A DNA stretch of 64,000 nt from Escherichia coli O157:H7 (lineage in GTDB: Bacteria > Pseudomonadota > Gammaproteobacteria > Enterobacterales > Enterobacteriaceae), in the NCBI RefSeq assembly GCF_013167455.1, contig NZ_CP038328.1; one strand, 5' to 3'. The notes below the pieces were generated by a model, which was not told the DNA's origin, searched no databases, and saw only the letters and a list, made by a program, of their open reading frames with translations. Of this stretch, positions 4,114 to 15,795 are shown in pieces. Within the stretch, counting starts at the first letter, position 1; every line of letters begins with the position of its first letter. Made by a program: the position numbers and the translations under genes.

Positions 4114-4446
4114 TTGAGAACCGTCGAAATACTGCAATACACCTTACGCAAAGGCAGCGGTGCCGCTTTTCACGCCATAATGCAGGAAATCAGTGTTCCC
4201 CTACACCAAAGCCACGGGATCGATGTTGTTTCGTTTGGCAACTCGCTTGATGACCTGGATTGCTACTACTTGATTCGCGCCTTTGACAGCGCTAAAAGCA
4301 TGACTGCGGTTCTCGATGCTTTTTACGCAAGCGCAGACTGGCGCAGCGGCCCACGCGAAGACATCATTGGCAGCATAGAGAACTGCATTAAAACAGTGAT
4401 TAGCCTACCATCAGAAAGCGTGAAAGGGCTGCGGATGCAATCGTAA
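4114..4446 (+). CDS. NIPSNAP-like small protein (110 aa), TTG start
   Basis: ORF bounded by an in-frame TAA at 4108-4110; GGAG 9 nt upstream of TTG; sequence resembles NIPSNAP/Dabb-like small proteins. Confidence 0.45.
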   Translation: MRTVEILQYTLRKGSGAAFHAIMQEISVPLHQSHGIDVVSFGNSLDDLDCYYLIRAFDSAKSMTAVLDAFYASADWRSGPREDIIGSIENCIKTVISLPSESVKGLRMQS

Positions 4447-4567
4447 GTAATCAAGTGTATTAGCTTAGATTTGACCTAAACAGCTTTGTGCCAAAAGTGG
4501 ACTAGGAAAAGCCTAGCGATAAAGAGTTGAGTTTAATAACTACTAACTGAAATTTAATGGGTGATAT

Positions 4568-6018: not shown

Positions 6019-6341
6019 TTTTTCCAGAGGCGGTCGAACTCCGCCTTCGCAAAATAAGCGGAAGCCTGGCGAAGGATATCGTTACTGCGGCGCAGTTCAC
6101 GATTTTCACGTTCCAGCTCTTTCAGACGCTGACGTTCAGCGCTGGTGAGCCCACCATCACCGCCCCCGGTATCCCGCTCATGCTGGCGAACCCAGACACG
6201 CAGAGTCTCCGGCGTACAGCCAATCTTTGGGGCAATGGAACAAATTGCCGCCCACTGTGAGTCATATTCATCCTGACTTTCCAGAACCATACGAATCGCC
6301 CGCTGACGGACTTCGGGGGAAAAACGAGTATTTTTAGTCAT
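6015..6341 (-). CDS. IS3-family transposase OrfA (HTH / leucine-zipper part)
   Basis: 108-aa [22 protein letters not shown]... ending in the A-rich slippery region CTGGAAAAAATGA that overlaps the OrfB start. Confidence 0.85.
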
Positions 6342-6392: not shown

Positions 6393-8366
6393 TCACTTTC
6401 TTCGCAGCGCATCTCTTACAGCATCCAGCCCATCAGGAATGTTGAATCTCGCTATCTCGGGCAAAGAAAAATCAATCTTTTCGACAACCTCAACCATGTG
6501 AACCGGTTTTAAATCTTTGCTGTATCGCACTTCAGTTTCTGTTTTGCCTCGCACATGCCCAAGTAGCTGCCCACGCAGTTCCGAACTAACACCCTTCTCT
6601 TTAAGCAAAGTTGAAACAGAATGCCGGAAAGAGTGGAAAGATTTGCTTCTGTCTCTTTCAAGTTTTAATCGACCCGCAAGCAATGATTCATTGAACCATG
6701 CGGAAACCGGCCTACCATAGCCTTTGGTTTTATGTGGTTTAAGCTCGGGAAAAAGACGGTCATACCCGGCAGCTTTCAACGCATCCACATACTCGATAAA
6801 ACCGAGTTCAATCAGCGTAGAATGAACCGGAATCTTGCGGCGGGAATTGGCGTTTTTTAGTTTCTTTCCGTTTTCGCTATCGCTTTCAAGGTTCAGGTAA
6901 TAAACGCCGTCATCTGCCAGAACATCGTCCAGCATTAACTGTGCAATCTCGTTAACCCTTGCCCCCGTCATCAAGCCCAACAACGGCGCCCAATAGTGAA
7001 ACGGGCAATATTGATGGAATCGCCCTTGCGCATTACGTTCAACAGTTCCAGCGACAAACCACGGTTGCGAAAAAATTGCCTTAATTTCATGCGGTTCAAA
7101 TATGTCAGTGTGATCCTGCTCTCGCTCACCTTTGTCATCGGGAGGGAAAAAGTTGTCGCATGGCGATTTCAGAAACTTACCATCATCAACAGCCCACTCC
7201 ATTGCACCATAAAGGCCGTTGATATACTTTTTGACAGACTCTTCTGTCATCAGTTTATCGCCACATTCTGCCGCTTTGGCGATTAACTCATCCAGCGTCT
7301 TAACCCCGTGCTTACCTTTCATCAAATTACGGTTAGCAGGAATTGTGCGCAACTTGCTCTCATAAGCCCGGAGGAAATCACGGTCGAAATCTTCCAACTG
7401 AATATCCCCCATCACTTCAATCATCAAATCGAAGTAATAGCGAATATCGCGGAGCGCCGCTTCTGATACCTTGCCCTTACGTCGATGTTTCAAATACTCT
7501 TCACGAAGCCATGACAAGTTTTCATTGTAATGTTTGCGGTGAACATATTCATTAGCGATAACAGGAGCGACAAGAGGCACGGCAGGGTGAATGCTAACTG
7601 CTGGTGGCGTGGTCTTAACCAGCCATGTAAGTCGAAGGCCTTCAGCATGAACTTTGCTAATCAACAGGCTATCAGCAGTTATATCTACGCCGGGTAAATC
7701 GAAGAACCAACCTCCACTTTGGTTATCACCACTAGTTCGAAATGCAGCCTCTCCTTCGGATACTCCAGCGCTCAACAGACAATCTAAAGTATGCCGGGGA
7801 TTGAAGGGGCGGAGATAACCATTTGCGAAGCTCTCGATACCCAGCTCAAACGCGCTATTGAGAATGATGACTTCTTTAGGTTGATCCTTTTCATCATCAG
7901 ACTGTTTTTCTCGTTTTGCACCCGGTTCCCGCTCTACTGCATTAAATTCATCAACATAGAAACCGAACTGACCAGTCGCCAGCCAGAATACCGGGAGGTT
8001 ACGATTAACCACCTCTCGAATCAATTGCGATATAGGCAACTCGATTGATTGAGCAAAGTTAGAAAGCGAGATCATACCCTCACCAGCAAGCAGTGGGGCG
8101 CAGTCACTTAAAGTTCGATAATCCAATTGTTCATACTCTTGTAAGGTCTGATACCAGACCGCCAACAGGAGCGCGGACTTCTGCTTTGCTTCATGAAGAT
8201 CGTGAGTGCCTGTTGAAGTGTGAATCTCACACTGTCCTGCGTATCGACGAAAACGTTGGGGAACGCTAATGCGGACAACATAAATGCCGCTGGTTCGACG
8301 ATAGAGTTTATATCGCTGAGACATCGCCTCGTATACCCTTTTGTAAGAGGGGCTACGCGATTTCAA
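6393..8366 (-). CDS. Tyrosine-type site-specific integrase (657 aa) of the leuX island
   Basis: C-terminal catalytic signature (R...HSFRHS...HVRGKTETEVRY); same strand as and immediately 3' of tRNA-Leu; stop codon coincides with the last 3 bp of the IS element. Confidence 0.85.
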   Translation of the reverse strand: MKSRSPSYKRVYEAMSQRYKLYRRTSGIYVVRISVPQRFRRYAGQCEIHTSTGTHDLHEAKQKSALLLAVWYQTLQEYEQLDYRTLSDCAPLLAGEGMISLSNFAQSIELPISQLIREVVNRNLPVFWLATGQFGFYVDEFNAVEREPGAKREKQSDDEKDQPKEVIILNSAFELGIESFANGYLRPFNPRHTLDCLLSAGVSEGEAAFRTSGDNQSGGWFFDLPGVDITADSLLISKVHAEGLRLTWLVKTTPPAVSIHPAVPLVAPVIANEYVHRKHYNENLSWLREEYLKHRRKGKVSEAALRDIRYYFDLMIEVMGDIQLEDFDRDFLRAYESKLRTIPANRNLMKGKHGVKTLDELIAKAAECGDKLMTEESVKKYINGLYGAMEWAVDDGKFLKSPCDNFFPPDDKGEREQDHTDIFEPHEIKAIFSQPWFVAGTVERNAQGRFHQYCPFHYWAPLLGLMTGARVNEIAQLMLDDVLADDGVYYLNLESDSENGKKLKNANSRRKIPVHSTLIELGFIEYVDALKAAGYDRLFPELKPHKTKGYGRPVSAWFNESLLAGRLKLERDRSKSFHSFRHSVSTLLKEKGVSSELRGQLLGHVRGKTETEVRYSKDLKPVHMVEVVEKIDFSLPEIARFNIPDGLDAVRDALRRK

Positions 8367-8414
8367 GCAAGATTATGAATTAAATTGTTTTAAAACAATA
8401 GTTTAGATGAGTCT

Positions 8415-8499
8415 TGGTGCCGAAGGCCGGACTCGAACCGGCACGTATTTCTACGGTTGATTTTGAATCAACTGCGTCTACCGATTTCGCCACTTCGGC
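8415..8499 (-). tRNA. leuX: tRNA-Leu (anticodon CAA)
   Basis: Reverse complement reads GCCGAAGTGGCGAAATCGGTAGACGCAGTTGATTCAAAATCAACC...GGTTCGAGTCCGGCCTTCGGCACCA: cloverleaf-compatible, CAA anticodon loop, CCA end. Confidence 0.9.
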
Positions 8500-8694
8500 A
8501 CTGAAGAGGTATGCGGAAAACGTTGTGGATTATACCTGTCGCACGCCACCATGCAAGCGCCAGCTTGCTCGCACCTCGCTAAGTGCTGAAATTTTCAGCA
8601 TTGCATACAGCGATGTGTAACCTTTGTCACACTCCAGGCACCCCGCCCTGCCATGCTCTACACTTCCCAAACAACACCAGAGAAGGACCAAAAA

Positions 8695-9714
8695 ATGTCG
8701 ATGATAAAAAGCTATGCCGCAAAAGAAGCGGGCGGCGAACTGGAAGTTTATGAGTACGATCCCGGTGAGCTGAGGCCACAAGATGTTGAAGTGCAGGTGG
8801 ATTATTGCGGGATCTGCCATTCCGATCTATCGATGATCGACAATGAATGGGGATTTTCACAATATCCGCTGGTTGCCGGGCATGAGGTGATTGGGCGCGT
8901 GGTGGCGCTCGGGAGCGCCGCGCAGGATAAAGGTTTGCAGGTCGGCCAGCGTGTCGGGATTGGCTGGACGGCGCGTAGCTGTGGTCACTGCGACGCCTGT
9001 ATTAGCGGTAATCAGATCAACTGCGAGCAAGGTGCTGTGCCGACGATTATGAATCGCGGTGGCTTTGCCGAGAAGTTGCGTGCGGACTGGCAATGGGTGA
9101 TTCCACTGCCAGAAAATATTGATATCGAGTCCGCCGGGCCGCTGTTGTGCGGCGGTATCACGGTCTTTAAACCACTGTTGATGCACCATATCACTGCTAC
9201 CAGCCGCGTTGGGGTAATTGGTATTGGCGGGCTGGGGCATATCGCTATAAAACTTCTGCACGCAATGGGATGCGAGGTGACGGCCTTTAGTTCTAATCCG
9301 GCGAAAGAGCAGGAAGTACTGGCGATGGGTGCCGATAAAGTGGTGAATAGCCGCGATCCGCAGGCACTGAAAGCCCTGTCGGGGCAGTTTGATCTCATTA
9401 TCAATACTGTGAACGTCAGCCTCGACTGGCAGCCTTATTTTGAGGCGCTGACCTATGGCGGTAATTTCCATACGGTCGGTGCGGTTCTCACGCCGTTGCC
9501 GGTTCCGGCCTTTACGCTGATTGCGGGCGATCGCAGTGTCTCTGGCTCTGCTACCGGTACACCTTATGAGTTGCGTAAGCTGATGCGCTTTGCCGCCCGC
9601 AGCAAGGTTGCGCCGACTACCGAATTGTTCCCGATGTCGAAAATTAACGATGCCATCAAGCATGTGCGCGACGGTAAGGCGCGTTACCGCGTGGTTCTGA
9701 AAGCTGACTTCTGA
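8695..9714 (+). CDS. ahr: NADPH-dependent aldehyde reductase (Zn-dependent alcohol dehydrogenase family)
   Basis: Translation [26 protein letters not shown]... with GHEVIG and CGxCxxC zinc motifs; ORF track start is 14 codons upstream. Confidence 0.9.
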
Positions 9715-9843
9715 TCTCTTTGCCGGGTGCCTGTCGCCCGGCACTTAAATCTCTTTGGAAGGCGTCTCGCAATCTGCTGAATTTAGCGGTGAAGAGTGCG
9801 CAGCCGTTGCCTATACTCCAGGCAGGAAACTGGAGGATATCTC

Positions 9844-11346
9844 ATGAGCGAACCCCTGTTAATTGCCCGCACGCCGGACACAGAACTATTTTTACTGCCG
9901 GGAATGGCTAACCGTCACGGGCTGATTACTGGCGCAACGGGGACGGGTAAAACTGTCACGCTGCAAAAACTGGCGGAGTCATTGTCGGAAATCGGCGTGC
10001 CGGTGTTTATGGCTGATGTGAAAGGCGATCTGACCGGTATCGCGCAGGCAGGAACGGCGTCGGAAAAACTGCTCGCAAGGCTTAAAAATATCGACGTCAA
10101 TGACTGGCAACCGCATGCTAATCCGGTGGTGGTGTGGGATATCTTTGGCGAGAAAGGCCATTCGGTACGGGCGACGGTTTCAGACCTGGGGCCACTGTTG
10201 CTGGCGCGGCTGTTGAATCTCAACGATGTGCAATCTGGCGTGCTGAATATCATCTTCCGCATTGCTGACGATCAGGGGCTGTTACTGCTCGACTTTAAAG
10301 ATCTGCGGGCGATTACCCAGTACATCGGCGATAACGCCAAATCTTTCCAGAATCAGTACGGAAATATCAGTAGCGCATCGGTTGGTGCCATCCAGCGCGG
10401 GCTGTTGTCGCTGGAACAGCAAGGCGCAGCACACTTCTTTGGTGAGCCGATGCTGGATATCAAAGACTGGATGCGCACCGATGCCAACGGTAAAGGCGTT
10501 ATCAATATCCTCAGCGCCGAGAAACTTTATCAGATGCCGAAACTGTACGCCGCCAGCCTGCTGTGGATGCTCTCAGAGTTGTATGAACAATTGCCGGAAG
10601 CGGGCGATCTGGAGAAACCAAAACTGGTGTTTTTCTTCGACGAAGCACATCTGCTGTTTAACGATGCACCGCAGGTACTGCTGGATAAGATTGAGCAGGT
10701 GATAAGGCTTATTCGCTCAAAAGGCGTGGGCGTCTGGTTCGTTTCGCAAAACCCGTCTGATATTCCGGATAATGTGCTCGGCCAGCTCGGTAATCGCGTT
10801 CAGCACGCTTTGCGGGCTTTTACGCCCAAAGATCAGAAAGCAGTAAAAGCTGCGGCGCAAACCATGCGGGCCAATCCGGCGTTTGATACCGAAAAGGCGA
10901 TTCAGGAACTGGGCACCGGCGAGGCGTTGATCTCTTTTCTGGATGCGAAAGGAAGCCCTTCTGTGGTGGAGCGTGCGATGGTGATCGCGCCTTGTTCGCG
11001 GATGGGGCCGGTGACGGAAGATGAGCGTAATGGCTTGATTAATCACTCTCCGGTGTATGGCAAATATGAGGATGAGGTGGACCGGGAATCCGCCTATGAG
11101 ATGTTGCAAAAAGGCTTTCAGGCCAGTACCGAGCAGCAAAATAATCCCCCCGCGAAAGGGAAAGAGGTAGCGGTGGATGACGGCATTCTTGGTGGATTGA
11201 AGGATATTTTGTTCGGCACTACCGGACCACGCGGCGGGAAGAAAGATGGTGTGGTGCAAACAATGGCCAAAAGCGCCGCTCGCCAAGTGACGAATCAGAT
11301 TGTACGCGGGATGTTGGGGAGTTTGCTGGGGGGGAGAAGAAGGTAA
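9844..11346 (+). CDS. yjgR: DUF853-family P-loop NTPase YjgR
   Basis: Translation [12 protein letters not shown]...GATGTGKT (Walker A); conserved position next to lptG. Confidence 0.85.

Positions 11347-15469: not shown

Positions 15470-15795
<326 letters not shown>

Follow-up and report, generated by a model that had tools for sequence, protein, structure and literature searches.

The window analysed here is a stretch of 64,000 nucleotides of Escherichia coli O157:H7 DNA in which the tRNA gene leuX, the aldehyde reductase gene ahr and the ATPase gene yjgR follow one another, with a short intergenic spacer between the last two. The genes and the spacer are as follows:

6393-8366: open reading frame of a leuX-adjacent site-specific integrase, on the lower-coordinate side of leuX
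8415-8499, minus strand: leuX, tRNA-Leu(CAA) (ARAGORN; Rfam tRNA, 59.4 bits; annotation of strain CDC#03-98)
8695-9714, plus strand: ahr (yjgB), NADPH-dependent aldehyde reductase of 339 amino acids (ADH_N and ADH_zinc_N domains; annotation of CDC#03-98)
9715-9843, plus strand: ahr-yjgR spacer, 'empty-site' allele, 129 bp (ORF ends and K-12 alignment)
9844-11346, plus strand: yjgR, ATPase of 500 amino acids with a HerA-like C-terminal domain (DUF853) (HerA_C, E = 1e-253)

The 3' end of leuX is oriented toward an island at lower coordinates. As ahr ends with the stop codon TGA at 9712-9714 and yjgR starts with ATG at 9844, the spacer measures 129 bp, which matches the approximately 130 bp stated in a sequence-only reading of this DNA. 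Downstream of yjgR lie lptG, lptF, and pepA, and the remainder of the window, from argI to cpdB, belongs to the ordinary core genome. A search of positions 8300-10100 for known RNA families in Rfam returned leuX alone, plus one sub-threshold chance match.

The window is 99.95-100% identical to the complete genome of strain CDC#03-98 across nearly its entire length, and the Ahr, YjgR, and leuX-adjacent integrase proteins are identical in CDC#03-98 and O157:H7 Z885, which identifies the window as a chromosome of the O157:H7 type. Furthermore, the same junction between ahr and yjgR was found in 3,217 complete genomes. Against this evidence, an assembly or reading artefact has practically no probability as the source of the adjacency.

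The integrase ORF beside leuX (approximately 6393-8366) is unusually long, with about 650 amino acids, and is shared with O157:H7 Z885. Near position 6397, the window lacks 164 bp that are present in CDC#03-98 between a copy of IS1203 and the integrase gene; no other difference from CDC#03-98 was seen. In the pepA-holC spacer, positions 15473-15768 hold a tandem array of REP/BIME-type palindromic units (96-bp unit, 3.1 copies, 93% match); this spacer measures 353 bp in CDC#03-98, with the window in agreement, and 159 bp in K-12.

The annotated gene order of E. coli K-12 MG1655 is yjgR, idnR, idnT, idnO, idnD, idnK, ahr, leuX. The sequence-only reading had given precisely this placement of the idn cluster between yjgR and ahr next to leuX, and ahr and yjgR are indeed not adjacent in K-12. 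It had also proposed an alignment with K-12 and a search for idn scars in the spacer. In the alignment, homology extends over 8414-9714 and resumes from 9805 onward, and the K-12 idnK-idnDOTR block of 5,074 bp starts directly after the ahr stop codon, that is, between 9714 and 9715. The elements of the spacer which this comparison and the subsequent scans delimited are:

9715-9726, plus strand: 12-mer TCTCTTTGCCGG, directly 3' of the ahr stop codon here and directly 3' of the idn block in idn+ E. coli such as K-12
9721-9743, plus strand: GC-rich hairpin with a 9-bp stem (UGCCGGGUG/CGCCCGGCA), a 5-nt loop and a U-containing tail (terminator-like site in the scan)
9727-9804, plus strand: 78-bp segment of idn-less genomes only, with one A in its place in idn+ E. 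coli (junction comparison)
9805-9843, plus strand: yjgR-proximal 39 bp, conserved in all alleles and genera examined, also in Enterobacter (alignments)
within 9805-9843, plus strand: CGTTGCC, part of the shared yjgR-proximal region
9812-9817, plus strand: TATACT hexamer, -10-like by eye
9816-9821 and 9830-9835: inverted repeat CTCCAG/CTGGAG
9832-9837, plus strand: GGAGGA, Shine-Dalgarno sequence of yjgR

At the right end of the idn block, K-12 reads TCTCTTTGCCGG, one A, and then CGTTGCCTATACT. The window, by comparison, continues after the ahr stop codon with TCTCTTTGCCGG, followed by the 78 bp without a K-12 counterpart and then by CGTTGCCTATACT. The K-12 allele differs from the window allele in two respects: 5,074 bp are inserted, and one base takes the place of 78 bp. 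Identical junctions were found in all four sampled idn+ E. coli genomes, and in idn+ E. coli the 12-mer ends one base short of the resumed homology. Possibly, TCTCTTTGCCGG is a relic of the left boundary of the empty site. As a database match the 12-mer was rejected, given that 25 of 200 shuffles scored equally; it is noteworthy solely for its location at both breakpoints.

The search for scars had a negative outcome: the spacer holds no idn remnant and is a conserved region common to E. albertii and Citrobacter werkmanii. When 9715-9804 was aligned locally to the idn blocks from K-12, Citrobacter FP75, and Salmonella, shuffled sequences scored equally well. No direct or inverted repeat and no target-site duplication was found at the two idn breakpoints, and neither K-12 nor CFT073 has an insertion sequence annotated within the idn cluster or next to it. 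Similarly, the K-12 annotation shows no integrase or other mobile-element genes at the ends of idn, and the idn junctions contain no direct repeats derived from the 3' end of a tRNA gene. The GC content of idn is 47.3%, compared to about 54-55% in the flanks.

These boundaries bear on the possibility that idn is part of the leuX genomic island and was moved by a tRNA-linked integrase. The neighborhood speaks for such an event, as ahr begins 195 bp from leuX and integrase genes stand beside leuX in every genome examined. The islands, however, are located at the 3' end of leuX, toward lower coordinates in the window, whereas idn lies on the 5' side of the tRNA gene, beyond the conserved ahr. In addition, the idn state is independent of the type of leuX island. 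With idn on the wrong side of the tRNA, and with neither integrase nor att repeats at its boundaries, an origin as a leuX-island event is highly improbable.

The hairpin at 9721-9743 gave a folding energy of -17.3 kcal/mol (z -3.6), and the same hairpin is found in E. albertii (-17.9 kcal/mol, z -3.4). The tail on its 3' side, CUUAAAUCUCUUU, is interrupted and meets the loose terminator scan only with a shifted stem. From its predicted structure, the hairpin is likely to be the intrinsic terminator of ahr. Conservation of the structure into Citrobacter werkmanii was considered and rejected, as the fold is not distinctive there (z -1.4); the claim of a conserved hairpin is therefore restricted to Escherichia. 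Within 9727-9804, the block CTCGCAATCTGCTGAATTTAGCGGTGAAGAGTGC is conserved in both E. albertii and Citrobacter werkmanii.

In the yjgR-proximal part, the sequence CTCCAG(N8)CTGGAG (9816-9835) overlaps the -10-like hexamer as well as the Shine-Dalgarno sequence of yjgR. It is kept in Escherichia, with a 5-bp version in Citrobacter, and may serve as an operator or form a translational hairpin. The consensus scan called no complete sigma-70 promoter for yjgR on the plus strand. The 129-bp spacer as a whole appears to be a working intergenic region, consisting of a putative ahr terminator, the yjgR upstream region, and the ribosome binding site.

The corresponding idnR-yjgR spacer of K-12 (6065-6141 of the extracted locus) contains no stable hairpin (-3.6 kcal/mol, z +1). 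Since the hairpin is missing between idnR and yjgR, read-through or co-transcription from idnDOTR into yjgR is possible in idn+ strains, and yjgR may receive such transcripts there. If yjgR is co-transcribed with idnDOTR, the two alleles would regulate yjgR differently.

The distribution of the alleles was determined in 5,426 complete E. coli genomes. The whole spacer was present in 3,217 of them (59%), with ahr and yjgR contiguous in 3,212, while any idn sequence was found in 2,055 (38%) and the entire idn block in 2,038-2,039. The idn-less examples include O157:H7, O111:H8, O103:H2, O145, and one O78:H51 APEC strain, and the idn+ examples K-12, BL21, and CFT073. Both states segregate within E. 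coli; the idn-less state is the majority state, and K-12 belongs to the minority class. Of the strain-specific presence/absence polymorphism proposed in the sequence-only reading, the polymorphism was borne out; with 3,217 idn-less genomes versus 2,055 with idn, the difference is not strain-specific. Across six divergent E. coli genomes without idn, and in E. albertii, the spacer keeps its length and nearly all of its sequence. For the source genome, the 64 kb of the window were read; on the chromosome of O157:H7 Z885 there was one match locus, which covered ahr and yjgR only, and idn had no match elsewhere on it.

A third allele with a degraded ahr accounts for approximately 141 of the 5,426 genomes, a count taken from the 80-90% identity band of the spacer search. 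In strain 673, which carries this allele (8468-9095 of the extracted locus), an ahr pseudogene remnant of about 236 bp is 77-78% identical to E. coli ahr. Its spacer is a variant with 88.5% identity over 9765-9860, idn is missing, and the locus adjoins a different leuX island. The allele of strain 673 has the appearance of DNA acquired from a less closely related enterobacterium.

Outside E. coli, the YjgR matches listed contained seven useful enterobacterial loci, with E. fergusonii and the cryptic Escherichia clades not among them; the other matches listed were mainly distant betaproteobacterial loci. In E. albertii and Citrobacter werkmanii, ahr adjoins yjgR across a homologous spacer of about 130-140 bp, which is partly conserved in C. 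werkmanii. Citrobacter sp. FP75 has the order ahr-idnK-idnDOTR-yjgR, and its right junction (TCTCTTTGATGGACATTGCC) is homologous to that of K-12. The nucleotide identity between K-12 and FP75 is 78-83% for the idn genes, 83.6% for ahr, and 82.2% for yjgR. Between genera, ahr and yjgR group by genus and follow the species tree, not the idn state. In Salmonella enterica, idnK is convergent with ahr and lies beside an integrase island, yjgR is missing, and idnR abuts lptG. Trabulsiella carries the idn cassette at an unrelated locus.

The spacer between idnR and lptG in Salmonella enterica (4303-4521 of the extracted locus) comprises 217 bp with REP-like palindromes and includes 27 bp that may be left over from the 3' end of yjgR (81% identity, E 0.005). 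Two Enterobacter genomes have a gene of the Dak1-Dak2 (dihydroxyacetone kinase) type on the opposite strand in the ahr/yjgR slot, at 8217-9863 (minus strand) and 8224-9930 (minus strand) of the two extracted loci. Conservation with E. coli restarts at GTTGCCTATACT in these loci.

Among the enterobacteria, the cargo of the ahr/yjgR slot is thus nothing, idn, or a Dak1-Dak2 kinase gene. The same junctions in Citrobacter, the adjacency of idn and ahr in Salmonella, and a divergence of the idn genes similar to that of the flanks together indicate great age: as judged from these comparisons, both alleles are old and common to several genera. The turnover of the slot looks slow, as its cargo shows divergence at the level of genera.

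A different account of the idn-less state is a recent lineage-specific deletion, by which the O157:H7 lineage or its close ancestors lost a K-12-like idn cluster from between ahr and yjgR. The neighborhood of idn and ahr in Escherichia, Citrobacter, and Salmonella, with a divergence typical of vertical descent, favors this account to some extent: a common ancestor with idn beside ahr is plausible, and in that case a loss is required somewhere. However, the 78 bp of the window spacer were found in no sampled idn+ genome, and, being private to the empty site, they make the window allele impossible to derive from a K-12-type allele by deletion. The occurrence of the 129-bp spacer in all 3,217 genomes, which represent many serotypes, and in E. 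albertii, together with the lack of idn remnants in the spacer, argues in the same direction. A recent deletion is hence very unlikely.

Compared to K-12, the divergence of the window peaks at the junction. In ahr it amounts to 4-9% over the final approximately 400 bp, where it reaches 6-9 differences per 100 bp, and in yjgR to 2.5-5% over the initial approximately 600 bp; toward leuX and lptG, respectively, it drops to at most 1% over some 1-1.5 kb. The flanks were further analyzed in ten E. coli genomes taken from a 'spread' ranking, so that divergent alleles are over-represented in the values that follow. The mean difference was 4.1% for ahr (maximum 6.7%) and 5.2% for yjgR (maximum 7.6%), mostly synonymous, and 500-bp segments of the two genes differed by as much as 8.8% between pairs. 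Overall, ahr and yjgR were 3-8% divergent among these ten genomes and mosaic. For example, the idn-less window has an ahr block in common with the idn+ strain CFT073, and for certain yjgR 5' alleles E. albertii is no farther away than other E. coli.

The genes lptG and lptF, as well as the idn genes, are much more conserved than ahr and yjgR. A partition of the flank alleles by idn state, as expected for a linked ancient haplotype, was examined and rejected: only three sites are fixed between idn+ and idn- genomes, all of them in the last 18 bp of ahr.

These mosaic and highly divergent ahr and yjgR alleles bear out the description of the region as recombinationally active in the sequence-only reading, in agreement with published work (PMC2617782); the integration mechanism at leuX is not involved. 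The pattern is consistent with homologous recombination in the flanks that would repeatedly have moved both alleles between genetic backgrounds. The idn genes themselves differ by 0-1.2% among K-12, CFT073, and two other genomes, and the idn block is at least 99% identical to that of K-12 in 1,973 of the 2,055 carriers. This suggests a relatively recent coalescence or spread of the idn copy in E. coli.

Taken together, we consider it very probable that the window represents an old and widespread idn-less allele of the ahr-yjgR interval, shuffled by recombination in its flanks, and not a recent deletion. The K-12/CFT073-type allele would be its counterpart, in which the stop codon of ahr is directly followed by a lower-GC cassette of 5,074 bp and a single base stands in for 78 bp of the spacer. 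Both alleles would be older than E. coli, or would go back to an ancient exchange between Escherichia, Citrobacter, and Salmonella. Among E. coli strains, homologous recombination in ahr and yjgR would transfer the alleles between genetic backgrounds, and a site-specific or transposase-driven event would have no part in their movement.

Regarding the direction of change, the empty site may be ancestral. The idn cassette, horizontally acquired, would then have been inserted once immediately behind the ahr stop codon, with the 78 bp lost, in an ancestor of Salmonella, Citrobacter, and Escherichia, and one copy would recently have spread among the E. coli phylogroups by homologous recombination. 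The low GC content of idn relative to its flanks, the cassette at an unrelated locus in Trabulsiella, and the kinase gene in the same slot in Enterobacter support this course of events, as do the 12-mer on the right-hand side of idn in genomes that carry the cluster and the near identity of idn in most carriers compared to 3-8% differences in the flanks. On the other hand, the junctions do not give the direction and two events are needed either way, the 12-mer is significant by position alone, and no insertion machinery was seen. We regard a single insertion into an ancestral empty site as having an even chance.

A further possibility is a trans-species polymorphism, in which both alleles have persisted since before the split of Escherichia and Citrobacter, or have been re-exchanged repeatedly. 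Niche-dependent (balancing) selection on the use of idonate and 5-ketogluconate would maintain them, and the diverse mosaic flanks would be its linked footprint. The very low idn diversity in E. coli fits poorly with a simple polymorphism maintained for a long time within the species, and we offer this possibility as a tentative and rather doubtful one.

The variable presence of idn is already known, and the case described here is an instance of a reported accessory polymorphism inside a known recombination hotspot. The genes idnK/D/O/T/R are accessory, occurring in 83% of pks+ and approximately 31.5% of pks- genomes (PMC8545132), ST131 H30 and H22 are without idnK (PMC5369007), and a subset of STEC shows an enrichment of L-idonate GO terms and degradation genes (PMC4216125). 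An explicit statement that idn is absent from EDL933 or Sakai was not found in the literature search; the absence reported here comes from the genomes. The accessory GntII cluster idnK-idnDOTR of K-12 occupies the same slot between ahr and yjgR, with essentially no difference. Added here to the published variability of GntII are the exact breakpoints, the 78-bp segment of the empty allele, and the occurrence of both alleles in other genera.

Touchon et al. (2009) described a leuX-centered region of about 200 kb with strong phylogenetic incongruence, at 4,421-4,618 kb in K-12 (PMC2617782). The ahr/yjgR locus, at approximately 4.49 Mb in K-12, falls inside this region, and the core-genome incongruence described there corresponds to what is observed here for the alleles of ahr and yjgR, which are mosaic and deeply divergent. 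In contrast to the non-homologous inserts of the leuX hotspot, which adjoin the 3' end of the tRNA, the idn indel is a polymorphism of two alleles (plus one minor allele) beyond ahr. Hotspots of integration where conserved core genes enclose varying cargo were reportedly described by Oliveira et al. in 2017. The ahr/yjgR interval resembles these hotspots in holding alternative cargo between conserved core genes, but differs from them in having three cargo states only and no mobile-element genes.

The GntII system provides L-idonate/5-ketogluconate catabolism together with a second gluconate kinase and transporter. From this established role, idn-less strains would be expected to lack L-idonate/5-ketogluconate catabolism as well as the second kinase and transporter. 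The idn-less allele accounts for the missing GntII/L-idonate pathway and second gluconate kinase in O157:H7-type and many other E. coli, which bears on models of carbon-source use in the gut. It also means that the gene order of K-12 is not the default at ahr/yjgR. Beyond such bookkeeping the importance of the finding is limited, and its evolutionary interest is mild: with both alleles present at the same junctions in more than one genus, and with hyper-diverse recombining flanks, the locus would be a tidy example for the upkeep of a catabolic-cassette polymorphism.
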